Positions 34,224-56,656 of a DNA stretch of 64,000 bases are shown in pieces. The notes beneath the pieces were generated by a model, which saw nothing but the letters and a program-made list of their open reading frames with translations, was not told the origin of the DNA and searched no databases. The position numbers and the translations under genes are program-made. Within the stretch, counting starts at the first letter, position 1. Every line of letters begins with the position of its first letter. Origin of the DNA: Amoebidium appalachense (taxonomy: Eukaryota > Protista > Ichthyosporea); NCBI GenBank assembly GCA_963693365.1, contig CAVNZM010000013.1, positions 6,543,785 to 6,607,784 of the forward strand, written 5' to 3'.

Positions 34224-34908
34224 ATGGCCACCTACAACGACGCGTTTGTCAGCGACAAATTGGCACGGATTGAAGGTGGGAAACGCGAAGTGGTGACCCC
34301 CGCGGGCCGCATCGACCTGCTCACAGACACGGACATCATCGAGGTCAAGCGCGCACCGCAGTGGAAGGCCGCACTCGGACAGGTGCAGGCGTACATGAAG
34401 TACTACCCGAGCCACCGACCACGGGTCCATCTGTTCGGCTATGCGTCAGCAGACGTGTTCAAGGTGGCCATCCAAACAATGTCAGACTTTAATATATGTG
34501 TGACGGTGGAACCTGACACGATGCAGCTTGTGTGGGGAAACCGACCAACTGCTACGCCCTCCAGGCCACAGGCGTGGTTCTGTTTCGGTGGAGGTACAGT
34601 TCTTGAAGGACGTGGCCAACGGATACGGTGTTGCAGCATCACAACTGGCGGAAGGGGGGATGTGGGTGACGACTGGCGGGATGCTGGAACTGATGCGCAC
34701 CTGGGCGAGCACAAGGGGAACGGGTACGGAAATTCGGGTGGGATCCAAAAGGTTGGGTTCGTGCCTCAAAAAGGTCCTTGGGGAGCGCAGCTGGGTCTAC
34801 TCGAATATGGTGAAAATAGGGAACCCCACATCGGAAACAACTATGGGGTATCGATTCGACAGAGACAAGGTCCTGAACTTTGAGAACAGCGGCCAGGCCG
34901 ACGAATAG
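34224..34908 (+). CDS. PD-(D/E)XK nuclease + winged helix, frameshifted near 34535-34580
   Basis: N-terminus close to 30465-31133 with intact D..EVK; the matching C-terminus (EVQFLKD...RTW...RLGSCLKKVLG) lies in ORF 34528-34908. Confidence 0.75.
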
Positions 34909-35110
34909 GGCGACCACATGCAGCACGCGCACGCCCGGGCGCGTGTGCGTCTGGAATCCATCAAACCCATGAACGGTAAAAAATGGGGGAAGCTCCGCGC
35001 GCGTACAATGCGCTGGCTGGCGAAACAGTCAAAGCCTGGTGTGGGGGGCTATTTTTAGGGATACCGGGTGTCTGTGTATGGTGTATTTTTTATTCGCACA
35101 CTGTTATAGG

Positions 35111-35467
35111 ATGTCTGCGGTAGGCTACGACGAGGCGTTCGTGCGCGAGCGACTGGCCGAGCTCGAGGACGGGGTGTGCGGGGTGCCCACACGGGCCGGC
35201 CGGATCGACGTGCTGACGAGCACGCAGGTCATCGAGGTCCAGCGCGCGTCGCAGTGGAAGACGGCGATCGGAAACGTGCTCGCATACAGCCACTACTACC
35301 CCGACCGCCAACCGCGGATCCACCTGTTCGACTATGCGCCGGCAGACGTGTACAGGATTGCCGTGCAAACCATCACGTCGCTCAACATCACGCTTACAAC
35401 CGAAGAGGACACGTTGCAGCTGATTTGGGGGGACGACGCGGGCAAAGACGTAAAAGACGAAAAATAA
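35111..35467 (+). CDS. PD-(D/E)XK nuclease-like paralogue, catalytic Lys lost
   Basis: GRIDVLTSTQVIEVQR...WKTAIGNVLAY; no winged-helix extension. Confidence 0.75.
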   Translation: MSAVGYDEAFVRERLAELEDGVCGVPTRAGRIDVLTSTQVIEVQRASQWKTAIGNVLAYSHYYPDRQPRIHLFDYAPADVYRIAVQTITSLNITLTTEEDTLQLIWGDDAGKDVKDEK

Positions 35468-35559
35468 ATAAAGAAGCCATGGGCAAAAAGTCAAAGCAGC
35501 GCAGAGTTGGCCAATAAACGGTCAAAGCTAGCGCGAAGTAGTGAATATTCAACGAAGCT

Positions 35560-35627
35560 AGCGCACACGGTAATAGCGCTCATGACCCTACTCTCAAACA
35601 ACACAGGTGCAAGCGCACGCATATCCC

Positions 35628-35681
<54 letters not shown>

Positions 35682-35799
35682 GCGCCCGGTGATAGCGCTG
35701 ATGACCCATCTCTCCAACAACACATGTGCAAGCGCACGGTGATTGCGCTCACGACCCTACTCTCAAACAACACAGGTGCAACTTGAAGCGCACGCATTC

Positions 35800-35851
<52 letters not shown>

Positions 35852-35940
35852 GCGCCCGGTGATAGCGCTGATGACCCATCTCTCCAACATGCGCTCATGA
35901 CCCTACTCTCAAACAACACAGGTGCAAGCGCAAGCATTGC

Positions 35941-35971
<31 letters not shown>

Positions 35972-36069
35972 ACACACACACAAAGCGCCCGGTGATAGCG
36001 CTGATGACCCATCTCTCCAACATGCGCTCATGACCCTACTCTCAACAACACAGGTGCAAGCGCAAGCAT

Positions 36070-36115
<46 letters not shown>

Positions 36116-36390
36116 ACACACAAAGCGCCCGGTGATAGCGCTGATGACCCATCTCTCCAACATGCGCAAGCATTGGGCCCCCCCCCCCCCCCCCCCCCCA
36201 CCCACCCACCCCCCCCCCACCCCCCCACACACGTACAAACACAAAGCGCCCGGTGATAGCGCTCATGCCCCTTCTCTCACACAACACATGTGGAAGCGCC
36301 CGGTGATAGCGCTCATGAGCCTACACTCAAACATAACAGGTGCAACCACACGCATTGCCCCCCACCCCCCCCCCCCCCCCCCCCACCCCC

Positions 36391-36439
<49 letters not shown>

Positions 36440-36568
36440 ACACACGCACAAACACAAAGCGCCCGGTGATAGCGCTCATGCCTCTTCTCTCACACAACAC
36501 ATGTGGAAGCGCCCGGTGATAGCGCTCTTGCGCCTACTCTCAAACATAACAGGTGCAAGCACACGCAT

Positions 36569-36603
<35 letters not shown>

Positions 36604-37030
36604 CCCCACACACGCACAAACACAAAGCGCCCGGTAATAGCGCTCATGCCCCTTCTCTCAAACAACACATGTGGAAGCGCCCGGTGATAGCGCTCACAAC
36701 CCTGCTCTCAAACAACACATGTGGAAGCGCCCGGTGATAGCGCTCATGACCCTACTCTCAAACAACACATGTGCAAGCGCACGCATTGAACCCCCCCCCC
36801 CCCCCCCCTCACACACACACACACACACACATGCACACGGTGGCTGCGTATCACCGTGCGCTTGCACCTGTGTTGTTTGAGAGTAGGGTCATGAGCGCTA
36901 TCACCGTGCGCTTGCACCTGTGTTGTTGGAGAGTAGGGTCATGAGCGCTATCACCGTGCGCTTGCACCTGTGTTGTTGGCGAGTAGGGTCAATGACATGA
37001 TCGCTATCACCATACCCTTGCTCATGAGCG
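35560..37030. repeat. Complex tandem array with inverted distal units
   Basis: AAGCGCCCGGTGATAGCGCT(C/G)ATGACCC units with poly-C/(CA)n spacers; reverse-complement units at about 36850-37030. Confidence 0.9.
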
Positions 37031-37096
37031 CCCCCCCCCCCCCCCCCAAAAACCCTCCTCCCATCTACCCGCACAACCCCAACCCCACATTATATC

Positions 37097-37504
37097 GTGC
37101 ACCGGGTAACATGGACGCTGGCGCACCCCTTCCCCCACCCAGCCCATTCGCACCCCCCTCCCCCGATCCGCACAAGCCCGCGCAGCACCCCCGGGCCCTC
37201 CCCCATCCTACTGGCCATCCTGGCCGGCCTGATCCTCTACGTGCTCTGGGACACGTTCAGCCCACGTGTGCGGCGGCGCCTGGCAGTGCTCAAGTGCCAG
37301 CGTGCGTGCCCAATGTGTGCCAGCTGCGGCAGCTGCGTTCCCCGCCGCAAGTGTGCGCACTGCCCCCGCTGCCACGTGTGCGGTGCCAGCCCCACCCGGT
37401 GCGCACAGTGCCCCGCATGCACGCGCTGCCCGCCCGAGCAAAAGTGCCCGGCGTGCCCCACGTGTGCGCATGCGCCTGCGGTGGTGATCAAGGAGCGCAC
37501 TTGA
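37097..37504 (+). CDS. TM protein with CxxC-repeat domain (start uncertain)
   Basis: ILLAILAGLILYVLW followed by many CxxC units; ATG 37111 is in another frame across C-runs. Confidence 0.6.
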   Translation: MHRVTWTLAHPFPHPAHSHPPPPIRTSPRSTPGPSPILLAILAGLILYVLWDTFSPRVRRRLAVLKCQRACPMCASCGSCVPRRKCAHCPRCHVCGASPTRCAQCPACTRCPPEQKCPACPTCAHAPAVVIKERT

Positions 37505-37540
37505 AGGGTTGGGTGAGCAGAGATTTTTGTGGCATAGAGT

Positions 37541-37801
37541 ATGGCGTACCGATGGGAGTACAAGCTGAAGGAGGAGCCCGGCAAGGCACCCGTGGTGCAG
37601 GCAACTATTGTGCCGACCGAGGCCACCACCCGGCGGACGCAGATGGAGCAACGAGTATATGCACAAGAGCTTGCGGAAAAGGGCTATATAGATCTGCCCG
37701 ATGAGTTGGCGGAGAAGTGTGGATTCAAGAAGTGGGTGCCCAAGAATCAACGACAGACAGCAATTGTACTGCAGAAGATGATGGAGCCTGAGGATGCATA
37801 G
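37541..37801 (+). CDS. Small hypothetical protein
   Basis: 86-aa ORF of ordinary composition. Confidence 0.55.
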   Translation: MAYRWEYKLKEEPGKAPVVQATIVPTEATTRRTQMEQRVYAQELAEKGYIDLPDELAEKCGFKKWVPKNQRQTAIVLQKMMEPEDA

Positions 37802-38009
37802 AGACCTACACAAGCCAAAGGATGAATGGACTCACACCACAAACATGGAAAATGTAAATGACGAGAGAATCTCCACAAACATGGAAAATGTAAATGACGA
37901 GAGAATCTGTTGGGATGTTTAATTTTGATGAGCTGGAGTCTATCCCCCCCCCCCCCCCCTCCCCCTCCCCTACACCGTTCAATGAAAACTTGGTAGCATG
38001 TGTATCATT

Positions 38010-38309
<300 letters not shown>

Positions 38310-38534
38310 CAATGTACGTGCCAGTGTGCTCGTACACAGATTGAAAAGGAGACTTGGGGTATATTAAATGGAGTCTCTCCCGCTACCACGGGCAAATACA
38401 TTCAATAGTCATTACGGAAACTTGGTACTGTTACCGGGCAAATACAATATACATGAAAATTTGGATAAGATTGAAGCAGATCACATTCGAATAAACATTA
38501 CAGAAAACTTGGTATGAAAACTTTGTACCACGTC

Positions 38535-38795
38535 TTTCCTCCACCACACCCATCACAAACCCTAAGTAAGATGTGAATGTGGGGCCTACCCGCCGCCACC
38601 ACCACAACTACGTTTCCCCCACCGCACCCACCACAAACCCTAAGTAAGATGTGAATGTGGGGCCTACCCGCCGCCACCACCACAACTACGTTTCCCCCAC
38701 CGCACCCACCACAAACCCTAAGTAAGATGTGAATGTGGGGCCTACCCGCCGCCACCACCACAACTACGTTTCCCCCACCGCACCCACCACAAACC
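38535..38795. repeat. 78-bp tandem repeat x3
   Basis: AAACCCTAAGTAAGATGTGAATG at 38557, 38635 and 38713. Confidence 0.9.
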
Positions 38796-38804
38796 ATGTG
38801 TGGT

Positions 38805-39146
38805 CTACCCACTCAAAAGCTCCTCCTCGAACTGCTCAAGCTCCTCCTCGAACTGCTCGATGTCAGCCTTGTACTTCTCTCTCAGCTTTTTCCACTGTGC
38901 ATGGGACACCTGTGGGTTGATAGTTGGGTGTAAGTAGTAGTCCAGCCAGGTGATTTGTTTATGCAAGGCTCAGACATCACTGTATGCCATTACCTCAAAC
39001 ACACCCACGCACCCACCAATACACCACCATGGCACACACCCACAGGAAACGAACTCCTACGTGTGGACCAGGTCAAGAAAAACTCTGCAAGGACTCAAAA
39101 AACCGTTTTTACGAACCCCTACATGTAATTGTGAATGCTAGGGCAT

Positions 39147-39200
<54 letters not shown>

Positions 39201-39245
39201 GTGTTTTTTTGTTTGTTGTTTTTTTTGGTTTGTTTTTTTTGGTTT

Positions 39246-39289
<44 letters not shown>

Positions 39290-41703
39290 GGGGGGGGGGG
39301 GGGTACCTCGAAAACGAGTTCCCTGTCAGTGTAGCCACACGTGCATGCCGGGGGGGGGCTTCTTGCCAGCGACCACAAGCCAGTTGACCGTGGCAAAATT
39401 TACCGCCTCGGCCAAGCTGCTACCAGCAGCATACCCAAAGTGGTATGCTCCAGGCAAGGTGCAGATGACCTCACCGGCGTGCTGAACCGTGCGCTGCACG
39501 GGGATGCCCTTCTTCATCAAATAACGGGGGTGGATGAACACAGACTGCCCCACCCAAATGTTAGTCATATGAAAACCCGGGTGGTCGTTTTTGTAAGTGC
39601 TTTTTTGGTTCTTGTTCTTCACGTCTGTGTCTACCACTTGTTCTTCACGTCTGTGTCTACCACTTGTTCTTCACGTCTGTATCTACCACTCCCTCTCTCC
39701 CTCTTCTTGTTCGTCCTCTGTTACTGTGTGTGTGTGGTCGTTTTTTTTTTTATTGTTTTTTTTTTATTTTTTTTTTTTTTTTTTTTTTTTGGTGGGGGGG
39801 CCTACCTTATGCTGTGTGACTTTCTTACAGATACCGGCCCCCGAAAGCTCAAGTCTCTCGTGGATATCCTCGAGGATAGACGTAACCTGTTCCTCGTACT
39901 CTGCACTGATCACGAACCAGATTTTCTCTCCTGGCCCACGGACCATGATGTTGACACTCCCAAGTAGAAGGTCTTCTGTGTGGAGCACAATCGGACCCCC
40001 AGTCGTGACACTGCAAAGAGGCATGGGATTAGTTGGGGCTAAAACAGTAATTACTTCCGACTAGATGTGGCCCAATACATTCCGAAAAGACCGACCCATA
40101 CACACACCCAGGATGGTTCTGTGAACATAAGGGGCGTTCTGCAAGCCTGCCTTTTTCCTTTGTTTAATTATTTGTTTTTTTTTTTTTTTTGGGGGGGGGG
40201 GGGGGCATACTTATAGAGCATCGGTGTTGAGATGCCCACACGATCTTTGAATTCTCTTGATACTATTGAGTCAAGCGTCTCCAAGCTGAACATGTAGTCG
40301 ATTTCTTTCTTCACCACCTGTCCCTCCTGTTAGTGCCTTCATGTTCACCATTCAACAACACACAGCATGCCTACATATACCCACCACAGTGCATCAACAC
40401 AACATACACTCTCCGCTGCACACCCACGCACGCACGCATGCCTACACAACATACACCCCACGCACGCACGCATCCCTACACAACATACACTCTCCGCACA
40501 AACACACGCACGCACGCATCCCTACACAACATACACTCTCCGCACAAACACACGCACGCACGCATCCCTACACAACATACACTCTCCGCACAAACACACG
40601 CACGCACGCATCCCTACACAACATCCACTCTCCGCACAAACACACGCACGCACGCATCCCTACACAACATACACTCTCCGCACAAACACACGCACGCACG
40701 CATCCCTACACAACATACACTCTCCGCACAAACACACGCACGCACGCATCCCTACACAACATCCACTCTCCGCACAAACACACGCACGCACGCATCCCTA
40801 CACAACATACACTCTCCGCACAAACACACGCACGCACGCATCCCTACACAACATACACTCTCCGCACAAACACACGCACGCACGCATCCCTACACACACG
40901 CACACATGCCTACGCAACATACACTCTCCGCACAAACACACGCACGCACGCATGCACAACATACACTCTCTGCACAAACACACGCACGCACACATGCACA
41001 ACATACACTCTCCGCACAAACACACGCACGCACGCATGCACAACATACACTCTCTGCACAAACACACGCACGCACACATGCACAACATACACTCTCCGCA
41101 CAAACACACGCACGCACACATGCACAACATCACTCTCCGCAAAAACACACACAACATACAAATCTTCGCCGCACACATACGTACCTCACTGGGTGTATGG
41201 GTGTTTTTAAGAGGCTTCAGATCTGTTCCGTAAAGGAACATTGATTTTTCACCATCCGATAGGGAGTCCAACAACCTCCAAAACTCCTCCTCCCCCACCG
41301 GATCCCCCTGCCCAATCGTGTTAGCCCCTGTTCATGGTAACCACATCCTAGTGGTTGCAAATACGCACCTCTGGAATTTGCCCTATGATGTCCTCCCTAT
41401 AAACGAGGAAGACATCCCTGATGGTGGTAGCCTCCACCCAAATCCGGGTGTAGGATTTTCTCACTCGTGTGGCCTGAGCAGCCTTTTTCAGCCCCTGCAC
41501 TACCGGCTCGGGAGGCACGAACTTGACGGCACCAGCTGCCCGAAACTCGTGTTCTTTTTCGATTGACAAAACTATCTTCTCCAAGGAGAGCTTTTCTAGA
41601 TGCATTTGGCGGAGATGTGCTACGGGTACCTCGTTGAACCCCGCCACCTCCCCAGTCTCAGTGTCTTGTTGTTGCCCCCTGTCCACCTCTCCCGCTTCTT
41701 GCT
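38805..41703 (-). CDS. KDM4-like JmjN/JmjC histone demethylase, multi-exon (5' exon unresolved)
   Basis: Exons about 41703-41369, 41307-41185, 40317-40211, 40010-39806, 39544-39307, 38908-38805 joined by GT-AG introns give AGAVKFVPP (JmjN), EEEFW, GISTPMLY, HTED...SVN...EKIW, CKKVTQHK|SVFIHP, GAYHFGY, AEAVNFAT. One indel in the G-run near 39350. Confidence 0.88.
40449..41140. repeat. 46-bp tandem repeat inside a JmjC intron
   Basis: ACACACGCACGCACGCATCCCTACACAACATACACTCTCCGCACAA units. Confidence 0.92.
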
Positions 41704-41735
41704 CTGTGTGTGCGTGCGTGTGTGTGCGTGTGTGT

Positions 41736-41774
<39 letters not shown>

Positions 41775-41785
41775 GCCGAGTGCAT

Positions 41786-41861
41786 ACATGCGTGCAGGTG
41801 CCTTCCCGTGGTGTGTGTGTGTGTGTGTGTGTGTCATGCATGCGTGCAGGTGCCTTCCCGT

Positions 41862-41895
<34 letters not shown>

Positions 41896-41921
41896 ATGCA
41901 TGCGTGCAGGTGCCTTCCCGT

Positions 41922-41953
<32 letters not shown>

Positions 41954-41979
41954 ATGCATGCGTGCAGGTGCCTTCCCGT

Positions 41980-42011
<32 letters not shown>

Positions 42012-42037
42012 ATGCATGCGTGCAGGTGCCTTCCCGT

Positions 42038-42069
<32 letters not shown>

Positions 42070-42095
42070 ATGCATGCGTGCAGGTGCCTTCCCGT

Positions 42096-42127
<32 letters not shown>

Positions 42128-42153
42128 ATGCATGCGTGCAGGTGCCTTCCCGT

Positions 42154-42185
<32 letters not shown>

Positions 42186-42268
42186 ATGCATGCGTGCAGG
42201 TGCCTTCCCGTGGTGTGTGTGTGTGTGTGTGTGTGTGTGTCATGCATGCGTGCAGGTGCCTTCCCGTG

Positions 42269-42297
<29 letters not shown>
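41786..42297. repeat. ~58-bp tandem repeat x9
   Basis: CATGCATGCGTGCAGGTGCCTTCCCGTG(GT)n units. Confidence 0.92.
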
Positions 42298-42299
<2 letters not shown>

Positions 42300-42345
42300 G
42301 GTAGTCTTTTCTATTTCACATTCCCCTCTTTTGAATTTGTGAACC

Positions 42346-43735
42346 ATGGATAGCGCCTCGCAAATGGTCGGGCAAAGCACAAACCCCGCCGACCCCACCG
42401 ACCCCAAAAAGGGCACCCCCACCGACCCCACCGACCCCACCGACAAAAAGGGCACCCCCGCCGACCCCGCCGACCCCACCGACAAAAAGGGCACCCCCGC
42501 CGACCCCGCTGACCCCACCGACAAAAAGGGCACCCCCGCCGACCCCGCCGACCCCACCGACAAAAAGGGCACCCCCGCCGACCCCACCGACCCCACCGAC
42601 AAAAAGGGCACCCCCGCCGACCCCGCCGACCCCACCGACAAAAAGGGCACCCCCGCCGACCCCGCCGACCCCACCGACAAAAAGGGCACCCTCGCCGACC
42701 CCACCGACAAGGACGTTTCTTCGGCTCCCATCGACCATAGACTTATGGAAGCACTACAGGCAGAAATGACATTGCAACTTAGTCAGGCTTTAGCCTCACT
42801 TGGCGTGACATCTGTGCCTGCTACACCCACCACCGCCGCCACCACCACCTTACTCGAATACAAAGAGAAATATGAAAATGCGGAGAAAGCGTTGCAAACG
42901 GTGAAAGATGAAAACAAACGGTTGACAGAAACGATTAGAGAGGTCAAAGAAGCAGCAGTCAAAGATAAATATACTGCTTCTGCAACGAACAACCTGTTGG
43001 CTGAGAGGGTTCAGGAACTCGAAGCTCGGCTCATTAGTGAGACGGCCGAAAAGTTATCCTTGCAGGATGAGGTGGCCTGGCAGAAGGAGGAAAATGCAAA
43101 AGTCGAGTCAGAGATGGCAGACCTGCAGAAAACCTATCGAAAGACAGTCAAGGAGAGCACACAAAAACTGCTTTTGGGCCTGAAACGCTCCCCCCATACA
43201 TCCGACGTGGAGATACTCCCCCCCCCCCCTCTAGCGCTACCCAATCCGGTCGTTCATCCGTTGCCCGCCCCCACCAACGTCCTATTCAGAGTGCCCCCGC
43301 TCGCATAGACCCCATGATGTCCAATCCCCACACACAAACATCCGACGTCGAGGAGATACTCCCCCCCCCCCCCCCTCTAGCGCTACCCAATCCGGTCGTT
43401 CATCCGTTGCCCGCCCCCACCAACGTCCTATTCAGAGTGCCCCCGCTCGCACAGACCCCATGATGTCCAGTCCCCACACAAAAACCGGGCTCGGGCTGAA
43501 GAGGGGGGCGGATTCAGGTGGGAATGTGCCCAAACGGTTCCGGGGCGGAGAGAGAGAAAGGCCCAAGGAATCAATAGATAAGATTCTCGACGAAGCAGCC
43601 AGAGAGGAGGATGAGAAGAAGCGGAAAGAAAGCAGTCGTGCAGGGCAGGGCAAGAAAGAAAGACCATCGGGCAAGAAAACGGTGCTCCGCACACGGAGGC
43701 CTGTGACTTCCAGTGACGATGACCATTCGGTCTGA
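42346..43735 (+). CDS. Repeat/coiled-coil protein with basic C-terminus; probable C-run frameshift near 43218-43229
   Basis: 39-bp repeats encoding PADPADPTDKKGT, a coiled coil, an internal ~140-bp duplication, and continuation into ORF 43460-43735 after a homopolymer correction. Confidence 0.6.
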
Positions 43736-43823
43736 AAGACTTTGTGTGTGTTTTTTTTGTTTTGTTTTTTTTTTTTGTTTTTTTTTTTGTGGGGGGGGGG
43801 GAGGGGGGGGGGGGGGGGGGGGG

Positions 43824-43921
43824 GGCTTCGACTATGTTACATGGCAGAGCCTAAGACGTTGGAGTGATGCCGTGTGAAATGTGGAAAAATATAGACTTGG
43901 CTATGAAACACGGAAAGCATT

Positions 43922-43961
<40 letters not shown>

Positions 43962-44153
43962 GGGGGGGGGGGGGCTTCGACTATGTTACATGGCAGAGCC
44001 TAGGACGTGGGAGTGATGCCGTGTGAAATCTGGAAAAATATAGACTTGAAAGCATTGTTTTTTTTTTGGTTTTTGTTTTTGTTTTTTTTTGTTTTTTTGG
44101 GGGGGGGGGGGGGGGGGGGGGGGGGGCTTCGACTATGTTACATGGCAGAGCCT
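43824..44153. repeat. Three direct repeats separated by poly-T/poly-G
   Basis: GGCTTCGACTATGTTACATGGCAGAGCCTA x3. Confidence 0.9.
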
Positions 44154-44287
44154 ACGGTTTCTGTATAATGTATAGGTAGAAGTTTTGGGATTTCTTTTTA
44201 CAATCGGTTGGAGATGGATTTTATAAAAAGAAATCCAGTGTTATCTGAATCTGTGCTTACCCCACATGCTTGTATACACAGACGTGA

Positions 44288-46290
44288 TGCACGTCTAAGT
44301 CCTTCACACACTCAAAGAGTCCCACCACCCACATGCACTAGCACTATTTCTCTCTTCCTGCTCTGTATCCCCCCTCCCCCCTTCATGCATGCACGTCTAA
44401 GTCCTTCAATCCCCATGCCATGCACACACTCAAAGAGTCCCCCACCACCCACATGCACTAGCACCATTTCTCTCTTCCTGCTCTATATCCCCCCCCCCCA
44501 CCCCCCCCCCCTCCCCTTCCCCCTTCATGCATGCACGTCTAAGTCCTTCAATCCCATGCCATGCACACACTCAAAGAGTCCCCCACCACCCACATGCACT
44601 AGCACCATTTCTCTCTTCCTGCTCTATATCCCCCCCCCCCCCCCCCCCCCCCCCCTCCCCTCCCCCCTTCATGCATGCACGTCTAAGTCCTTCAATCCCC
44701 ATGCCATGCACACACTCAAAGAGTCCCCCACCACCCACATGCACTAGCACCATTTCTCTCTTCCTGCTCTATATCCCCCCCCCCCCCCCCCACCCCCCCC
44801 CCCCTCCCCTTCCCCCTTCATGCATGCACGTCTAAGTCCTTCAATCCCCATGCCATGCACACACTCAAAGAGTCCCCCACCACCCACATGCACTAGCACC
44901 ATTTCTCTCTTCCTGCTCTATATCCCCCCCCCCACCCCCCTCCTCCCCTCCCCCCTTCATGCATGCACGTCTAAGTCCTTCAATCCCCATGCCATGCACA
45001 CATTCAAAGAGTCCCCCACCACCCACATGCACTAGCACCATTTCTCTCTTCCTGCTCTATATCCCCCCCCCCCACCCCCCCCCCCCCTCCCCTTCCCCCT
45101 TCATGCATGCACGTCTAAGTCCTTCAATCCCCATGCCATGCACACACTCAAAGAGTCCCCCACCACCCACATGCACTAGCACCATTTCTCTCTTCCTGCT
45201 CTATATCCCCCCCCCCCACCCCCCTCCTCCCCTCCCCCCTTCATGCATGCACGTCTAAGTCCTTCAATCCCCATGCCATGCACACATTCAAAGAGTCCCC
45301 CACCACCCACATGCACTAGCACCATTTCTCTCTTCCTGCTCTATATCCCCCCCCCCTCCCCTCCCCCCTTCATGCATGCACGTCTAAGTCCTTCAATCCC
45401 CATGCCATGCATGCATTCAAAGAGTCCCCCACCACCCACATGCACTAGCACCATTTCTCTCTTCCTGCTCTATATCCCCCCCCCCCTCCCCTCCCCCCTT
45501 CATGCATGCACGTCTAAGTCCTTCAATCCCCATGCCATGCATGCATTCAAAGAGTCCCCCACCACCCACATGCACTAGCACCATTTCTCTCTTCCTGCTC
45601 TATATCCCCCCCCCCCCCCCTCCCCTCCCCCCTTCATGCATGCACGTCTAAGTCCTTCAATCCCCATGCCATGCATGCATTCAAAGAGTCCCCCACCACC
45701 CACATGCACTAGCACCATTTCTCTCTTCCTGCTCTATATCCCCCCCCCCCCACCCCCCCCCCTCCCCCTCCCCCCTTCATGCATGCACGTCTAAGTCCTT
45801 CAATCCCCATGCCATGCATGCATTCAAAGAGTCCCCCACCACCCACATGCACTAGCACCATTTCTCTCTTCCTGCTCTATATCCCCCCCTCCCCTCCCCC
45901 CTTCATGCATGCACGTCTAAGTCCTTCAATCCCCATGCCATGCATGCATTCAAAGAGTCCCCCACCACCCACATGCACTAGCACCATTTCTCTCTTCCTG
46001 CTCTATATCCCCCCCCCCCCCCTCCCCTCCCCCCTTCATGCATGCACGTCTAAGTCCTTCAATCCCCATGCCATGCATGCATTCAAAGAGTCCCCCACCA
46101 CCCACATGCACTAGCACCATTTCTCTCTTCCTGCTCTATATCCCCCCCCCACCCCCCCCCCCCTCCCCTCCCCCCTTCATGCATGCACGTCTAAGTCCTT
46201 CAATCCCCATGCCATGCATGCATTCAAAGAGTCCCCCACCACCCACATGCACTAGCACCATTTCTCTCTTCCTGCTCTGTATTCCCTGCA
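44288..46290. repeat. Subterminal tandem array, ~120-140-bp unit, about 15 copies
   Basis: CATGCATGCACGTCTAAGTCCTTCAATCCCCATGCC...CATTTCTCTCTTCCTGCTCTATAT(C)n units. Confidence 0.95.
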
Positions 46291-46433
46291 TGCACTAGCA
46301 GTGTTACTCGTTCATCCCAGCCCGGGCCAATGGTATGCAAAGTAACTGTATCGGCCGTGCAGCGCTGTCGTTGTGTGTTTATTTTCGTGTTTTCGGGTCG
46401 GTGCACGTGTGGTGTGGAGTACCATGTTTATTG

Positions 46434-46695
46434 CTTTTTGTATCAGCGCTGGCGTGTACTCCACTTTTGTATCAGCGCTGGCGCTGTGATTGTCGTGTAC
46501 TCCACTTTTGTATCAGCGCTGGCGCTGTGATTGTCGTGTACTCCACTTTTGTATCAGCGCTGGCGGTACTCCACTTTTGTATCAGCGCTGGCGTGTACTC
46601 CACTTTTGTATCAGCGCTGGCGCTGTGATTGTCGTGTACTCCACTTTTGTATCAGCGCTGGCGCTGTGATTGTCGTGTACTCCACTTTTGTAGCG
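46434..46695. repeat. Short tandem repeats
   Basis: GTACTCCACTTTTGTATCAGCGCTGGCG units. Confidence 0.9.
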
Positions 46696-46711
46696 CGGTG
46701 TGTTAATTGAA

Positions 46712-47032
46712 TTAAAAGTCCGAGTGACTTGTTTGTCTCAGAGTGGTGTCGTACTCCGCAGCACCCGTCTTCTTATTGAAATAGTATATGACTGCATACA
46801 CCAATGGTGTAACCAATAAACATGTGAGGACAATAGCAGCGCTGACGTACACCAGATACATTTTGTTCACTTTCTCTCTAGCATTCGGTTCGGACTTCAT
46901 TAAATTGTACCAGTGTATATTTGCAACGACACTGCATATAGATATCACATAAAGAATGCCTGTGGTGACCGTGCTGTCGAACATGTACGTGTACCTCACA
47001 AAACTTTCAGTATCCGACGTGTTACACCCCAA
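46712..47032 (-). CDS. Small two-TM membrane protein (start uncertain)
   Basis: Two hydrophobic segments in an intronless ORF. Confidence 0.5.
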   Translation of the reverse strand: MGCNTSDTESFVRYTYMFDSTVTTGILYVISICSVVANIHWYNLMKSEPNAREKVNKMYLVYVSAAIVLTCLLVTPLVYAVIYYFNKKTGAAEYDTTLRQTSHSDF

Positions 47033-47288
47033 AAGTGACCTCTCTGAGATCTTGCCTGTGGTACAAACTCTTGATGCCGTGTTGCTCTTGTGTTTTACCA
47101 GTACCCCTCTCTCCAGATGCCGAATTTAGATTGGAATTCGTGAATACACCCATGTGATTGGTCAGTGGTTTGGCACCAAGAGATTGATTGATATGCCATC
47201 AACCAGTCAACAAAAAGTACTCGCTTTTACTTTTTGTCTCGCTTCACCCCAATCCAAGAACAGTGCACACCAAAACAAAACACTAGAA

Positions 47289-47771
47289 ATGGGAGACGCA
47301 CTTTTGCGCCCCGATTCGGTTGACCCCGAACGATGCCCTGCATTTGCACCCTCAAAAAAAGCCCAGTGCAAAAACAAAAAGAAAACATGCCCACACCACA
47401 AGGACGGCTTCAAGCCCTGGGTATGCTTTGCCCCTGCCACCGGTGTCCTCCTCTACAGCGACAACACCATCAACATCCTCCACCCCCACAAGGCCGGGGA
47501 CTATGCTCATGCAAACCTCCTGCTGGACGACCTCCTGGCCGCCTTTACAGTCGCAGAAATGCAGCGCCCTCGCACCGAGCGCACCGGGGTACCCGCGCTG
47601 ACTGTGTCCACTCCGGATCCACCCATGGGTGCACCACAGCCACCGGTTGCAGCTGCAGCGGTGGGTGTGGGCAGGGAAAATGGGTACTGCCAGGGCAAAA
47701 CCAAGGCTGGCAATCCCTGCAAAAACAGGGTGAAATCTACGACCCATTGCCATAAGCACAAGCCCAAATAA
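47289..47771 (+). CDS. Protein with two C3H zinc-knuckle motifs (DUF5763-like, NCLDV type)
   Basis: RCPAFAPSKKAQCKN...CPHH and CQGKTKAGNPCKN...CHKH; stop overlaps AATAAA like the other viral genes. Confidence 0.7.
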   Translation: MGDALLRPDSVDPERCPAFAPSKKAQCKNKKKTCPHHKDGFKPWVCFAPATGVLLYSDNTINILHPHKAGDYAHANLLLDDLLAAFTVAEMQRPRTERTGVPALTVSTPDPPMGAPQPPVAAAAVGVGRENGYCQGKTKAGNPCKNRVKSTTHCHKHKPK

Positions 47772-48463
47772 AAAAACCACCCACACACCCCCACGTGCCA
47801 ACATACACTATCCTCCCCGTGAGTGGCATGCCAGTCTCCCCAGCCCCCCTGCCCCCCTGCCCCCCTGCCCCCCTGCCCCCCCTGCTCCCCTGCCCCCCTG
47901 CCCCCCTGCCCCCCTGCCCCCCTGCCTGCCGGAACCAGGCCCCCCAGTGGTGGCATTCCAACACGTGCATGCTAGAAGATCGTGCTACATGAACAAATGG
48001 TCTTAACTCAGCCATACATGGGGGATAGATAGTATCACACAACCATGGTTCCCCCACTCTCCCCAGCCTCCTGTGCACGTGTGCCTCCCCTGCACGTGTG
48101 CCCCCCTGCCTCCCGTAACCAGGCCCCCAGTGGTGGCAGTGAGTGTCCCCCCTGCCTCCCCTGCACGTGTGCCCCCCCTGCCTCCCCTGCCTCCCGGAAC
48201 CACGCCCCGGCGCAGTGGCAGCTATTTTTAGATATAGAGATTCCATGGCCACATGGCCAGATGGCCAGATCATTTTGCTCACCGTTTTATCCCGTTTTAT
48301 CCACCTTTTTCCACACACTGAATTTGACCTGGCCATCTGGCCATCTGGGTAGAGACCGTTTTCTGTTCTGATATTGGAGAACTGTCTGATAGTGATAGCA
48401 AATGTCATTCGAAGAACAATCGGGAAACCCCGTGGTGTGACAACCAATCAGAATGAAGCAATA

Positions 48464-48854
48464 TTGGGATATTCGGGTTGGTTGTAAGGTTTTCCGGGTC
48501 GGGCCGAAGGCCTTAACGGGCCGCAGGCCCGTCTATTGGGCCATAGGCCCTAGGCCCTAGGCCGCTAGGCCTGGGGCCCGGGGCGCCGGGGACCGGGGCG
48601 CCCGGCCCGGCCCGCGAGCCACCCCGGCCCGGCCCGGCCCGCGGGGGGGGGGGTTAGCAGCGGCTGCTAACCCCCCCCCCCCGCGGGCCGGGCCGGGCCG
48701 GGGTGGGCCGGGCCGGGCGCCCCGGTCCCCGGCGCCCCGGGCCCCAGGCCTAGCGGCCTAGGGCCTAGGGCCTATGGCCCAATAGACGGGCCTGCGGCCC
48801 GTTAAGGCCTTCGGCCCGACCCGGAAAACCTTACAACCAACCCGAATATCCCAA
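48464..48854. repeat. ~391-bp GC-rich near-perfect palindrome (putative hairpin terminus)
   Basis: Arms TTGGGATATTCGGG...TTAGCAGC / GCTGCTAA...CCCGAATATCCCAA, centre G48662; 7 extra nt (GCGAGCC) in the left arm; G11 versus C12 run. Confidence 0.97.
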
Positions 48855-50057
48855 CCATGCATGTGCATAACGGCAGATCGTAATCCCCCATACTCCCTAA
48901 CTCCCGATACTCAGTGGGGACCGATAATCCTACATATGAAATTTGATCAATTACATAGTGAAATTTCAAAATGAACCCTTTGTCCTTAAGCTGGCCAACC
49001 CCAGCCCAACCCTGATTCGAATTGTTCCGGTCAGGTTATGCAGAATTTGAAAAAGATCATTTCAGGCAGCCGTGATGGCTATGTGTGAGGGGTGGGGGTG
49101 CCAATAGACCATGGCGATACATGTACTGTGTAACTTGATGCCGTATTCTGTCGTGTGAGACTATGTCAGAAGTAAACTTATAATCAGGCTTGAGTCAGGC
49201 GGAACTTCAGTGAGACATAAATATCTTTTGAGCATCCGATTTACTTGTCTGTATAAATGAATTGTCTGTTCCGGCCAATCAACAACCTTTTTTTTAGTAT
49301 CTGATTCACTGTCCGCGGCCGTTGAAATGTTTGCGCTCTGAAACACACAGTCTCCGCCATTCTAATGTTATCGAAAGCAAGCTGATGACGATAATAAAAA
49401 CCAACAACAAAAGATGTGCACGGTTGAAGAATTTTGCAATTTTGCAGTTGAAACACAATGTCGAATTCGTATATTTTTTTAAAGCTTATTTTATCCCGTT
49501 TTGTTCCCGGAGGGACCCCCTGGGGCCCTCAAAGGGAACTATAGCGTCTTCCACCCAGCACCGACAGTACTCTAGCTAGGGTGCTACGCGTACGGTATTA
49601 TTAGCTAAGCTAACACACCCTTAACAATCCTAACTGTATTTGCACACACTTAGCCCAGGGTATTCACCCCAGCCACGCCGGTGGGTAGCACCAGCTGCAG
49701 GCTTCCCCTCAACTCAAGACCTACGAATAGACTTTAACACCGGGCTCTCATTGGTTCGTCTAAAGTGGTGGAATGTGTGGTGTGGTGTGGGTGGGGCCTA
49801 CGGGGGATATGGATGGATGGTGGGTTTGGTGGTGGTAGGTTGCTACCTAGCAGAATATGGTGTTGTACATAGAGGGTGGCTACGGTGTAGTGGTCTAGGA
49901 GCCTAGTGTTACATGGTTGGTTGGTTCCGTTTGTCGAATTCACATATTGTCAAGAACACACTGCAAGAGAACAGCAGACTTGCTACGCAGTCACACACAC
50001 ACGATATATATCCGTCAAATGGTGCGAGTCACAATCCACACACAGGCTCACACGCAG

Positions 50058-50103
<46 letters not shown>

Positions 50104-50492
50104 GACAAACAGCAGCCACCACCAACATTGCACGACATTGAATACACTTTTTTAAGTGCACCCCACCACCCAAAACCACACCACCACCATAATATGTTAG
50201 ATCCGCCTCAGGGAAGAGGTAAATTTGGTAACAAAGCACACTCAGAAATTCAAGTACAGTTTTATAACTAAGCACTACAATTGAAATCTGTGATTGAATT
50301 AAGTTCGATCGTTCTGCCATGTCTGTATGGCGGGCTCAATCTGTAATGTAGGTATAGTCCTACTTTTTTTTTGTTTTATAAATAGGGCTCCTGAGGCCCG
50401 CGCTCACCAGAAGGCAGCGTTGCGCTGAATAAGGTCGGTGATCTTGATCAAAGGTTGAAAACAAAGCACTTGCGTGCACACACATGCACACA

Positions 50493-50575
<83 letters not shown>

Positions 50576-52149
50576 CTCCCAGAGGTCTAGAAAGAAATTC
50601 AATTTAAAAGACCAATAACAAGAAAGGAAAGAGAAAAAGGAACAGCCAAGAAAAAGAAAGGAGAAGGCAATACGCCACACCCCGAGTTCTCTTCTCTCTT
50701 TTGTTTTATTTTTAGACACTTTATTTCTCGACGGCATTACTTTCACGGCACCAGCAACCGGGGACCATAGTGTTTCGGCTCCCATGTCACTGGGTGGCAG
50801 AATGCAAAAGTAATGTCTGTATTATGGCTTCTAAGAACTATATTTAGGAAAAAACATTCACACACTCCGAGATCAAAGTCAAAGTTTCTTTTCAAGCAAA
50901 AACCATCAACAAATCTTTAAGGTATTTATTATGTCACAATGTTCCCCGGCCAGCCGGGCCCCACCAATCAGGAGAGGTGATTAAGCCACCCGGAGATTGG
51001 GAGGTGTGATCAGAGATCTGTCAACGATGAATCATGGGGTTACAGTAAATGGTATCACAAAGTCCGATCTGGAAAAATCACTTCTTTGCTTTTTTCTTCT
51101 TCCTTCATCAGTAAACAGAAGCACTACTTGCGTTTCCTATTTTCATAGTCCGAAAAGTCTAAAACTAATGCATATATTTTACTGAGGGTGCAGCGGGTTC
51201 TTCCGTCGTGCTCTTTTTTTTTTTAACTTTGTTTACAACTAATTCTAAGATTTAACTTTTTTAACAGCTCCAGAACTTTGGAGTTATATCCATGGCTTTC
51301 ACTCAACCTATCTCGGGAGGTAACGGTGTACTGCTATATTCAAAATATTCAAATAGTCCTTCTTATAGGTGCGTGTACCTGTGCCCAGGCACCGAAATCC
51401 TTTTTAATTGGTTTTGCACCAGCGAATCACCATTAGCTTTTCCAGACGTAAATTCTTGAACAGTTGTCGAAAGCCTGTTACAAAACAAAAAAAGGGGGGT
51501 CTTAGACACTGAGGGAGGAATAATGTTTGTTGTATTTGCGAGTGTTGTGTGTGCAAATGTGTAATCACATTGTGTATCGTACCCACGACAGCAACATTAG
51601 GGTGTTATTGTAATGCGTGTATGTGCCCATTTTTATTTCACTGTAGTAGTAGGTGTTGTGGCTTTTCTGGGGGTAAGGGGTAGGGGCTGGGCGGAGGATT
51701 GGAGGCGGGGCCAGGCGGGAGATGGGTGGGATGGGGGGGTGCGCACACGTATGTGTGTATGTTTGGTTTGGGGGGAGGAGGGGGGAGGGGGAGGGGGGAG
51801 GGGGGCTGCGAGCGTGTGGGAAGGGGGGGGTGGGGATGCGGGGGAGGGGGGGAGGGGGGGGAGGGAGGGAGGGGGGGCTGCAAGCGTGTGGGGGGATGTG
51901 TTGCGCGATTCTTTTGCGATTTTGTGCGTGTGCAAGTGTGTTTAGCGTGTGTGTGTGTGTGCGTGCATGCGTGAGGTGAGTGAGTGAGTGAGCCAGTGTG
52001 TGTTAGTGACGTGCAAGCGTGGTTGTTTCTATATTTCGTTCTCTTGGTGTGTGTATGTGTGCGCGCGCGTGTGCGTGCCACGGTGTGCGTGGTGATTATG
52101 GACAGGAGGGGAGGGGGAGGGGGGGGGGGGGGGGGGGGGGAGGGGGATG

Positions 52150-52331: not shown

Positions 52332-54118
52332 GGGGAGAGGGGAAGGATGGACAGGTGGGAGAGGGTGATGGAGGGGGGAGGGGGGTGTAGAGGTGGTGTT
52401 GGTGGGGAGGCATTGGGGGGAGGGGGAGGGAGGAGGGCGAGGGGGAGGGGTGGTCCATAGAATCTCACCTCAATGTCTTTGCTTGGAGCAACCAGGCGAC
52501 TGCTGATGTATTCTGCGCCAAGCAACCCTCTCTCCGTTGCAGGTTGGGCACGTGGGGTCATCTCTGACAGGTAGCGGGTGTGGACGGCAAACCCGGCACT
52601 ATCTCCTGGGTATGTTTGCTGGGTGGGGGTGGAAACGTGAGTGTGGAAGACAAGGGGAGTAAAGGGAGAGATATGGTGGGTGCGTGCGTGCGTGGGTGGG
52701 AGCATGGGTCGAGGGTGTGCGAGAGAGGGGCCGGGTTGATTGCCGGGTTGGTGGGTGGTGTGAGAAGGGGAGGATGGGCACCGCATTTGGCACCAAGCTT
52801 AATGGACGAAAGCTTTCATTGTTTTTTATGTATTAACAGACTATTCTGTATTCTGATGTTCATAGAATGTTTGTTTGTTTGTTTGTACATGTGTGTGCGC
52901 GTGCGTGCAACGCGTGTGTCCGAACGAAAGTGCACGTGCGTGCGCGCACGCGTGTGAGCGTGTGCACGTTTGCGAGCGTGTGCCCCATCGTCCAACTAAC
53001 ATTTCGCATGCATGACTTTAGGCAAGTCTTTTTCTTACATGATGAGTGTGAAGTTCTGTGAACCCTCATGTAAAAGTATGCACCTACAAGTAAAACTCCA
53101 TATTTTGCTCATGGAGTGTCCACACTAACATATTAATTCCTTTTTCCGCACTACTCCCGCAACAGAAATTCATTTTCCCAAACACTCCGCCTTGACCATA
53201 AATATAGCATCCCCCCCTCCCCCTCTCTCCCTCGTCCCCCCCCCCCCCCCTTCCCCCCTCCCCCCCAACCCCCTTTCCCCCGGGAATCTTGAAAATCGGA
53301 ATTTGGTTCGCACCTGCAATGTACCGTTGACATTCCACCCAACAACAATCCCCGTGGTTTCATCCACCACACACTGACCAATGACGCCCCTCTTTGTGTC
53401 TCCCACCGGCCAAACACCGATTCTCTGCACGTTACCAAGATAGGAAAAGAAGCGAATATCGTAGTTGTGTTGCTCGGAGCCAAAGTAGACGACACCGTGT
53501 GTGTCGTTGTGGAGGGCTGTAAGACGTTCGATGTGTGTCAGAGCAACGTTTTGCTGCCCGGAATTCTGCCTGCTGTTGTACATGTATTGGAGTTAGATAT
53601 ATGTGAGATATGAAGAATGGCAGATAGACACGGTATGAAACTATTTAGATAGAAAAGATGTCTTGCTGGCAAGTAAAACAATGAATATATACATAGCTCT
53701 AAATGATATGCATATATGCAGATTTGTAGATAAACAAGTTAGCTCCCAGCAGCATGCAGTACTGACACCACATGTGCTGGAAGAATACAAGTATATCTAC
53801 AAGGCATGCAGGATCACAGCCATGTTTCTTCAAAAAGGGAGGGCTAGGTTCAGGTTCTTAAAGACTTTGCAAGAGGAGAGTGTTAAAGCACTGAGGTGAG
53901 AAGGGACCAGGCAGCTAGGAGGAGGGAAAGGGGAAAAAGAAAGAAATAGATGTGGAGGGGGCAGTGTGTGTGTTTTCTTTGTGGTGGCAGGTGGGTATGG
54001 GGGAGGAAATGGAGAAGAAGGTATATGAGCCGGAGGAGGAGGGGGGAAGGGAGGGAGGAAGGGGTGGGAGTTGGGAAGGGGATGTGTGTGTGTCCACACC
54101 ATAAACGCCACGCGTGTA

Positions 54119-54199
<81 letters not shown>

Positions 54200-54659
54200 T
54201 GACAGCGAAGGCCCGACGGGGTGAGGGAGGAAGGACAAAGAGGTTGGGGTGTATGTTGCAATAGTTGAAACGGTGCCATTGATACGCACGGGGAAGGTGG
54301 GAGGAACCGGGGGGAAGTTGGGGGGGGGGGGGGGGGGGGGGGGGGGGAGGGGGAGGGGGGAGGAAGTGAGGGAACTGTCAAGCATTGGAGAAGCAGAAAG
54401 GGCAAGGCTCGGTGTCAGATGTTCTTGAGCACTAGATTAGGTAGCAGGAAGCGGGGCATTCAACCTAATGGCAGAACAAGAAACTGTGAATGGGTTTGGG
54501 AATGTGCTGATTGGTTGAATTTTTGATGTGTTTGGTCAATGTGTGCATATCATGAATGTGTAGGGTGGTTGTGGTTGCCGGTGTGGTATGCAATGTGAAT
54601 ATGCATGGTCGAAGATATGCCTACATTATGTGATGCATGTGAAAGTGTATTGGGAGTCG

Positions 54660-54735
<76 letters not shown>

Positions 54736-55850
54736 ATGTGTATGTGTGCTGGTGTGCTGAGCACTGTGTGTGCTCTGTACCGCTTGCTCTCCGCATCCCC
54801 GTTTGTTGCTGTGTTCACCACATGAAGCAACGAATAGTACTGCACCCCACTGTGTGCACAGGTACGTGTAAGTAGGAGCATCCACACTGCCCATCATCTA
54901 GCTAGAGAGGGAAGCCCCCCCCCCTCCCCCCCCCCCCCCCCCCCCCCCTCCCCCACCTCCTCCCTACCCCCCTTCTCTGGCTTCAACTTTACATCAACCG
55001 GATTATCCTCCCTCAACCAAATGATGATAAACTAAATCTAGGTAACAGCGCGGAAAGCTTTCTTCCTTTGGTACTTTAGAATTTCAGCCTTCCTTCCCCC
55101 TTTTGGGGAGTTCCGTGCAGTAATCCCCTCCCTCGCCAACCTCGTACCCTCCACCCACGGGTCCCCCCATCCGTCCCCCCCCTCCCCCCCCCCCCCCCCC
55201 TCCTCCTCCTCTCCTCGTCCCTCCCCCTTAACCCCCCTCCCCTCCCTCATTCTCCTCAAACAAACCCACTACCCAAGCACCTCACCTCCTCCCCTTTCAT
55301 CTCTTCGGTTAGAGACCTGCCCCGCCTGCCCCCCCCGTCCCCCCCCCCCCCCCTCCCCCCCCCCTCTCCCCCCCCGGGCCCCGGGAACGGCAAACCCTTC
55401 CACTGCCCCTCCCGACCTCACAACCCTCCCTCAAAAGCCCTTCCCAAACCACTCCCCCTCCCTCCCCCGGCCCCCAACCACTCCCTCCCCCTCCCCCCCC
55501 CCCCCCCCCCTCCTCTCCCCCCCTTCCCTTTCCCGTACAACTTCAACCACCTTCTGAGCCTTTCGTCCCTCTTCATCATTCTTTCGCTCCCCTTTCCTCC
55601 CCCCTCTCCCTCCCTCCCTCCCCAGACCGTCTCTCCCTGCCACTCCCCCTTTCCCCTCCCCCTCCCCTCCCCCCCCCCCAGCCCGTCCCCGTGTGTTTCA
55701 CCCCTCTATTCTGCCTTCAAACCCCCCCCCCCTCCCCCCAACCCCCCTTCCGGGTCCCCTCCTAACACCTGGATGGTGGTGCTGGTTGTGTTGTGAGTGG
55801 TGTTGGTATTGGTGTTGATGAAAGTTGGGCGGTTGGTGTAGGTGGTGTGT

Positions 55851-55894
<44 letters not shown>

Positions 55895-56656
55895 GAGTAC
55901 AGGGGCAGGGGGCGAGGGGGGGGGGGGGGGGGAGGGGGAGGGGGGGAGGGGGCTCTTCATGAGTTTAAATCAGAAATTCCCAACAACAGCAGCCAGGGCT
56001 CACCTCTGCCTGATCAGGGCCTCAGTGACGTCAGACCGTCCATCCTCCACCACCACCCAGTGCACGTTGGCTGCATGCGACAGCGTGTCTCCAAGCTCAA
56101 GCAGCTCACGAAGCTGGAAACAAGTGGGGGTTTAACACCGATACGGGGTTGATCCAACACCACAATAAAAAGGCGTGCAGCACTCTCCCACACACACGCA
56201 CACACAAAAACCAAAACAAATCTCACAAGCAAACCGCTCTCTCCCTCTTCCCCCCCTCCCCCCTTCCCCCCCTCCCCCCCTGGGCGGTGGGGCAAAAATA
56301 GAGAATTCGGGGAATACTGCAGTGTTCTAAATAGGTGTGTGTAGGTAGTGGTGTTGGCTACAGCTCAGGGACGAAACCTGGAAGAGGCATAAGAAGCACA
56401 AACGCACCATAGAAACATACATGAGGAACTTCGGGCACATTCACGCAAGTGTACACATATGCCCGAATACTGTAACGGAAACTCGTCATCCACACAAGAC
56501 GTTCACATAAAAAAGTATCTGCAAGAAACAAACTTTGTCCCACAGCCATCTCCCGACGCACAGAGATGCACACTCTGTTAACCTTATCCGAGTGGGAGAG
56601 GAGGGGGAAGGGGAAGGGGGTGGGGAGGGGGGAGAAGGAGGGGGGAGCCCGTGTGG

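Follow-up and report, generated by a model that had tools for sequence, protein, structure and literature searches.

A multi-copy, palindrome-bearing module at the edge of a giant-virus-like insertion in Amoebidium: a possible viral end

By what route was a giant-virus-like insertion joined to the Amoebidium chromosome at a boundary marked by a long GC-rich palindrome? Only for a few groups of giant viruses is the way into the host genome understood. A sequence-only reading of this locus had held that the palindrome is a viral hairpin telomere that was opened and fused to host DNA. Comparison with public sequencing runs favors a different explanation, with a rough probability of 0.45: the palindrome would be sub-terminal in an end module common to many related giant-virus insertions, which integrate via defined ends. 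The window, meaning the whole 64-kb stretch of DNA that was analyzed, holds only the right 48 kb of the insertion, and left of the palindrome it contains the following features.

1 to 35500, no strand: giant-virus-like region, gene-dense and intron-poor (ORF cover 80%, CpG observed/expected ratio 0.92)
22923 to 23462: Ydc2/RuvC-like ORF with motifs IDVG...KDDMADA (Pfam E 2e-4, below cut-off; PDB E 0.32)
39329 to 40060, minus strand: JmjC gene, two exons (E 1e-12 and 0.0018)
47193 to 47771, plus strand: final ORF before the module, encoding 192 aa that include two Cys/His clusters

These virus-type genes bear out the earlier view that the palindrome sits where a giant-virus-like region ends on the right. 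The gene-dense part encodes aquaporin, KilA-N, T5orf172 and DUF5906 helicase-like proteins, with 7 of 42 proteins passing the Pfam cut-off, and a penton-like ORF scored 0.96–0.97, a recognition below the threshold of the tool. Major capsid, VLTF3 and A32 genes were not found among the ORFs scanned. The DUF5906 protein has 10 relatives, six of them at 38–56% identity, and the sole named one is a "hypothetical protein." In viral contigs, a search with the single protein returned 0 loci and a search with an alignment returned 6, at 24–32%; an inverted repeat near one of these six loci (56 nt, 79%, AT-rich) was rejected as unrelated. The stretch from 35500 to 48200 is repeat-rich and includes the intron-containing JmjC gene and the last, orphan ORF. 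A homologue search with that ORF found none, and its weak leads to viral clusters all score below 0.9 (DUF5763, 0.77). Between this ORF and the palindrome, a C-rich block at 48071–48114 weakly matches an intergenic repeat of the gene-dense region (27798–27840, E 6e-4); against the whole window, the matches of the block are mainly poly-C.

The right side of the boundary is occupied by a host gene.

53173 to 56113, minus strand: GT43 glycosyltransferase exons (E 8.7e-17 and 0.00023) with microsatellite-rich introns

The boundary drawn by the sequence-only reading holds at the level of genes, in that no viral-type gene was found right of 48855 within the window, and the intron-rich GT43 gene lies there instead. 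Its nearest recognizable exon is 4.3 kb right of the start of single-copy DNA, and a homologue search with one GT43 exon gave no matches. A DxD motif is usual in the GT43 family; the exon at 53173–53592 (minus strand) reads GSEQHNY at this site, and the predicted enzyme may be inactive. Base composition near the palindrome is host-like: the flanks have a GC content of 44–45% and CpG observed/expected ratios of 0.53–0.54, calculated from only 6 and 4 CpGs, nearer to the host value (0.61) than to that of the gene-dense viral part. Depletion of CGC/GCG, at 0.91 in host and 0.96 in viral DNA, is uninformative as a host signature. A second, more divergent multi-copy repeat at 49486–49690 has T-rich runs at its left end and many different flanks; its anatomy is SINE-like, and it is present in all four runs analyzed.

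The palindrome itself has the following parts.

48464 to 48854, no strand: GC-rich palindrome, 391 bp, centre base 48662 (self-alignment of the window)
48502: nested mini-hairpin GGCC-GAA-GGCC inside the palindrome
48516: nested mini-hairpin ACGGGCC-GCA-GGCCCGT inside the palindrome
48612 to 48618, plus strand: 7 left-arm nucleotides without a right-arm counterpart (self-alignment; register ambiguous)

Self-alignment resolves paired blocks of 148, 24 and 19 bp, and the longest perfect arm of 150 nt is the maximum of the window, whereas 200 shuffles gave no arm above 20 nt; a palindrome of about 391 bp with a one-nucleotide centre at 48662 was thus correctly recognized at the outset. Also correct was the extreme GC content, which is 75.7% overall, 88–92% in the core and 54–56% in the outer 50 bp. 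The left arm is composed of GGCC-type stems, and its 15 GGCC (shuffle mean 7.4; 15 reached by 1 of 2000 shuffles) agree with the nested micro-palindromes reported earlier. Three GNA tri-loops occur in the left arm and none in its complement, and a count of three was reached by 0 of 2000 shuffles; this count was dropped as evidence because it was picked post hoc and partly follows from the GGCC spacing. The single unpaired 7-nt insert of the sequence-only reading is present and is not the sole asymmetry, as a run of G11 faces one of C12 near the apex. This overlooked mismatch is possibly an assembly error, since window base 48920 is contradicted by every contig that covers it in four of four runs (X1, X2, X7 and X13); the window thus carries at least one consensus error here, at 48920. 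At the viral-side base of the palindrome, 48459–48466 reads CAATATTG, the short palindrome pointed out before; it overlaps the arm by 3 nt and was given no weight. The outermost paired bases are TT/.../AA, and no target-site duplication was found at the palindrome ends in the 4 end registers inspected. No further copy of the palindrome occurs elsewhere within the window, and an Rfam search gave 5 matches, each far below the gathering score.

Public sequencing data reveal that the palindrome belongs to something larger. Twenty public runs hold part of 46700–51000, and four of them (X1, X2, X7 and X13) were analyzed for depth over 48225–49750 as short-read contigs, with 30 of 2116 pieces and the 23 best-supported of 340 loose ends examined (18 of these in X1, X2 and X7). 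Summed contig depth does not equal copy number, and depth ratios hold as orders of magnitude; X13, with depth in 6 of 30 bins, is taken as a hint only. The baseline is 49041–49448, where X1, X2 and X7 each have a single contig, at depths of 171.8, 23.4 and 18.1, respectively.

48225 to 48463, no strand: inner flank, multi-copy, left limit at or left of 48225
48855 to 49014, no strand: outer segment, multi-copy, beyond the right arm
49019 to 49485, no strand: first single-copy DNA, one contig per run, found in organisms A, B and C

From 48225 to about 49014–49018, the DNA is multi-copy in three of the four runs (X1, X2 and X7), with single contigs at about 21–67 times single-copy depth. In the inner flank, such contigs reach 67x over 48312–48432 (X2) and 21.5x over 48318–48461 (X7); in the outer segment, the one X7 contig over 48920 reaches 45x, X2 stands at 40x at 48939, and summed bins reach 58–214x. 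The bin that spans the right palindrome edge (48837–48887) remains at 95–224x, and depth at the apex is low (3–13x). The first bin, at 48225, is still high, so that no step in depth is seen where the examined stretch begins on the left. Another inverted repeat lies in the inner flank, its 24-bp arms at 48249–48272 and 48325–48348. Because every part of 48225 to about 49018 is much deeper than the single-copy contig, the DNA right of the palindrome is not locus-specific, and single-copy DNA starts about 160 bp further. The palindrome therefore does not lie exactly between viral and host DNA, as had been claimed: 130–160 bp to its right are multi-copy, and single-copy sequence begins at about 49015–49019.

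Arm and outer segment are probably contiguous in other copies, given the high depth of the bin across the right edge and the lack of well-supported loose ends at 48464, 48854 or 48986 (none among the 18 best-supported of X1, X2 and X7). No contig among the 30 of 2116 pieces bridges 48854/48855. The outer segment could also be a separate repeat, because X13 covers 48853–48989 at depth 2–5 without arms or inner flank and because X7 has double the depth in the outer segment that it has in the inner flank (45x versus 21.5x). The same 2:1 ratio had raised the idea of an inverted end on both sides of the virus, which was dropped, X2 being contrary (40x versus 67x).

The copies vary among themselves. 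Four of the 15 joints listed fall within the palindrome and excise 95–287 bp of its middle; one of them, from 48524 to 48794, is common to X1 and X7 and links two copies of one mini-hairpin. None of the 15 skips the whole palindrome or joins both flanks directly. The mini-hairpin loop at 48523–48525 is flipped from GCA to TGC in most of the X7 depth and in a minority of that of X1. Outer mirror bins of the palindrome agree within about 2-fold. Equal depths of two bulge isomers, expected of flip/flop hairpin ends, were not seen: the bin with the 7-nt insert and its mirror bin stand at 47:1.6, 19:2.7 and 23:5.5 in three runs (summed contig depth, rough). Since the insert bin is far deeper, the arm without the 7 nt is a rare form, and the bulge likely stems from a private right-arm deletion and not from flip/flop.

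The exact point at which the repeat ends on the right is marked by two candidates.

48986 to 48989: TTAA, candidate end 2, ...GTCC/TTAA, last module base 48985, Kolobok-like
49014: candidate end 1, ...CCCTG/ATTCGAAT, hAT-like; sequence ...CCCAACCCTG, reading CAGGGTTGGG inward on the minus strand
49015 to 49022: candidate target site ATTCGAAT, 8 bp, of the nTnnnnAn type

An end at 49014 is most likely, being favored for most copies because high depth persists past the TTAA, and an end at 48985 is less likely. Single-copy contigs start at 48986–48989 across X1, X2 and X7, and exactly at 48989 in X1 and X2; assuming 31-letter words for the contigs, a start at 48989 implies shared sequence up to about 49018. 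One X13 contig leaves the window sequence directly after the TTAA at 48986–48989, and the X7 contig of the locus departs right before it, with 14 unmatched letters. This X7 contig carries a net 13-nt deletion in 48986–49028, matching the reported 21 and 11 gap letters, and the X7 allele differs from the window left of 48986. Ends of hAT elements commonly begin with CAGGG or TAGGG. The nTnnnnAn octamer is described as the target preference of the hAT transposase Hermes in the part of the source consulted (PMC10368747), and Kolobok elements, in likewise partial text (PMC9587614), are recognized by RR...YY termini and a TTAA duplication. A partner inverted end, expected as ATTCGAAT-CAGGGTTGGG (hAT-like) or TTAA-GGACAAAGGG (Kolobok-like), was found for neither candidate in the 49 kb to the left within the window. 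The best match after any of 47 leftward TTAA sites is 9 of 20 nt, and the other copies of ATTCGAAT in the window, at 38485 and 60697, do not adjoin a partner end. The partner copy could lie outside the window, for example left of position 1. No hAT transposase was found among the window ORFs scanned, and no transposase or integrase among 42 + 12 Pfam and 16 NCBIfam queries from the window.

The end of a viral element is the simplest account of these observations, because the module abuts virus-type DNA, stops at single-copy DNA and is without a nearby partner, which makes it unlike a small MITE. The multi-copy stretch, which ends at about 49014 and begins at 48225 or to the left of it, would form one conserved end module, of which the other copies would cap viral insertions. 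A reaction of the transposase or integrase type, acting on a defined end, would have joined the module to the host some 160 bases outside the palindrome. The palindrome would act in cis at the viral end without being the joint, serving most simply as a binding-site array or as a site that forms a cruciform after excision. We infer the joining of arm and outer segment in most copies, the capping of insertions by these copies, the end at CCCTG/ATTCGAAT and the class of enzyme. The copy estimate of about 21–67 is of the same order as the 132 insertions reported for Amoebidium (PMC11244446). Also in favor are the high depth of the first bin beside the C-rich block, the nTnnnnAn octamer that follows the likely end and the defined ends known in two other giant-virus groups. 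Against an end module, about 50% of the host genome is transposons, which makes a repeat beside a viral boundary unremarkable; the composition of the flanks is host-like, and the ORFs scanned include no transposase or integrase. Pattern scans for the module gave 0 matches in metagenome contigs and, for 3 motifs, 0 matches in viral contigs; seven viral-contig loci from a 16-mer scan, with only 16–23 nt matching, were set aside as chance.

Nearly as good, and tentatively a little behind, is the explanation that a non-autonomous DNA transposon of the host, with a hAT- or Kolobok-like end and a palindromic subterminal array, makes up the module; it would sit beside the virus or have been interrupted by it, its other end being lost or past the opposite edge of the virus. 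Such an element would leave tens of copies that diverge slightly, as seen here, its candidate ends and target motifs are transposon-like, and the GC and CpG values of the flanks are host-like, on very small counts. Moreover, an unrelated repeat (49486–49690) lies 470 bp away in a genome about half of which is transposons, a Chlamydomonas viral element likewise lies within a host repeat, according to the portion of that report consulted (10.1101/2024.09.03.611062), and pandoravirus genomes contain hAT-type MITEs. Countering this, the window has neither a partner inverted end nor a target-site duplication, and depth shows no step at the left limit of 48225. The palindrome alone was rejected as a MITE, given the lack of end duplication, the multi-copy state of both flanks and the 0 of 15 listed joints that skip it. 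A related proposal makes the palindrome a separate small element (GGGATA...TATCCC, 48466–48852) that inserted without duplication between TT and AA of an older repeat before the repeat multiplied. The outermost paired bases (TT/.../AA) and an X13 contig that matches from precisely 48853 onward, after 3 unmatched letters, are consistent with this; that contig is 89 nt long at depth 5, however, no listed joint of the 15 fuses both flanks directly and the window has no other copy of the palindrome, and the proposal is improbable.

The original proposal, that a closed viral hairpin was nicked about 195 nt from its apex, unfolded and joined to the host at 48854/48855, is now unlikely. It draws on a near-perfect long palindrome with one bulge, adjoining tandem arrays and virus-type genes, on the hairpin ends known in poxviruses and Kaumoebavirus (PMC8956199, PMC7909422, each in part), on the X13 outer segment that runs from 48853 without arms and on the 48854/48855 junction, unbridged among 30 of 2116 contig pieces. 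However, locus-specific DNA would be expected from 48855, and the outer segment is instead multi-copy up to the arm and onward to about 49014 (45x in an X7 contig), and X7, whose allele differs left of 48986, has no well-supported loose end at that point; an opened hairpin would work only if the outer segment were a host repeat unrelated to the virus. Furthermore, the bulge isomers are not 1:1, and a GC content of 76% stands against the 84–93% A+T of poxvirus hairpins given in the text consulted (PMC8956199). An assembly or fold-back artefact is highly improbable. The disagreement of base 48920 with all contigs there, the low apex depth (3–13x) and palindromic misassemblies reported near giant-virus ends (PMC13712841, in part) speak for it. 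Against it, the two arms have different flanks, both at high depth, and some contigs that carry internal deletions connect the left arm with the right, one such deletion being common to X1 and X7. Two studies also supplied runs whose short-read contigs contain the palindrome sequence and both flanks, which disposes of the fold-back artefact that the sequence-only reading had named as a risk.

An end module of a giant virus can be set beside several known systems, for each of which the published text was consulted in part. Amoebidium harbors 132 giant endogenous viral insertions with aquaporin, multi-exon JmjC and D5-type primase genes, core markers near Mamonoviridae and dense 5mC (PMC11244446). 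The present locus resembles them in its intron-poor viral block with aquaporin and D5-type primase, its multi-exon JmjC-only gene and its intron-rich host flanks. These insertions are polymorphic between isolates, their integration was termed apparently stochastic, an end structure is not described and transposons make up about 50% of the genome (PMC11244446). The terms "palindrom," "inverted repeat" and "hairpin" do not appear in the main text as accessed, nor do "palindrom," "inverted" and "TIR" in the supplement text, figure pages excluded (PMC11244446).

In Chlamydomonas reinhardtii, a giant endogenous virus has defined ends in several insertions and relics, with ACC...GGT termini, 6-bp duplications, inverted repeats of 10.8–14.8 kb and satellite arrays near the ends; its integrase was not identified, and the part of the text consulted makes no mention of "hairpin" (10.1101/2024.09.03.611062). 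A tandem array (44290–46290) likewise lies near the module here, whereas the end is CAGGG or GG and the candidate target an 8-bp site or TTAA. Phaeovirus elements of Ectocarpus carry attP and, apart from the integration ends, a telRL-like internal palindrome proposed to be resolved into hairpin telomeres; they encode a tyrosine recombinase (CC core) and an N15-like telomere resolvase with a 56-bp site (PMC13236599, in part). The palindrome here is similarly internal and distinct from the candidate integration end. Unlike the phaeovirus palindrome, it is 391 bp, GC-rich and 130–160 bp from the end, and neither a tyrosine recombinase nor a telomere resolvase was found in the window.

Hairpins of poxviruses and Kaumoebavirus are long inverted repeats that contain unpaired bases and lie close to tandem repeats (PMC8956199, PMC7909422, both in part), and poxvirus junction palindromes extrude cruciforms that are cut by a Holliday-junction resolvase (PMC8956199, in part). 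Poxvirus telomeres, as covered there, are A+T-rich, flip/flop and have mirrored flanks in the junction form, whereas the palindrome here is GC-rich with one dominant form and unmirrored flanks, and the window has only the weak resolvase-like ORF at 22923 to set beside the poxvirus enzyme. Teratorn, a herpesvirus bounded by piggyBac ends (CCYT, with TTAA duplication), encodes its transposase and is present in 30–40 copies per genome (PMC10175614, in part); the present case differs in its giant-virus-type genome, its non-piggyBac end and the absence of a transposase among the ORFs scanned. In common with hAT (PMC10368747) and Kolobok (PMC9587614) elements, as far as the sources were seen, the candidate end is followed by nTnnnnAn, or YY by TTAA, and their non-autonomous forms (PMC10368747, PMC9587614, PMC6004678, in part) also have subterminal repeat arrays and tens of copies; the second end and the duplication were, in contrast, not found within the window. 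The end sequence matches none of the Chlamydomonas, phaeovirus, Teratorn and poxvirus systems compared, and searches of an open-access library found no description of such an end module.

If the end module does occur at tens of loci, the integration route becomes testable, the boundaries of insertions become exact and the class of enzyme is indicated. If the module is a host transposon, it belongs to an ordinary repeat family, unusual in the length of its GC-rich palindrome. A further and doubtful extension is that the giant virus lives as a giant transposon with hAT-like ends, in which the palindrome, 160 bp inside the end, would be the double-stranded form of a telomere; after excision and circularization, it would form a cruciform that a virus-encoded RuvC/Ydc2-type resolvase would convert into two hairpin ends. 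If true, giant viruses would have a third way to integrate, and the view of the insertions as stochastic accidents would be overturned.

The viral side of the window holds several further repeats and gene families. The JmjC gene (38800–41750, minus strand) has host-style introns with poly-G/poly-T and CA repeats, and tandem arrays of 46 and 58 bp lie in or beside it. An array of 14 copies of an approximately 141-bp unit with variable poly-C lies at 44290–46290, 2 kb inside the module, and an array with a 50-bp unit at 35566–36991 has its last copies inverted (42-bp perfect arms at 35891–35932 and 36857–36898). Two pairs of paralogous viral ORFs (12526–13434 with 26138–27070, and 15820–17325 with 23796–25307) have no family matches. 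A trio of paralogous ORFs (30465–31133, 34224–34883 and 35078–35467) has no Pfam match and a GRIDLLT...IIEVK motif in common, which we take to be reminiscent of PD-(D/E)xK nucleases. Finally, the motif GCTATTTT occurs on the plus strand at 1632, 35048 and 48221, the last of these where the stretch examined for depth begins, in the viral part only, and is possibly a viral promoter element.
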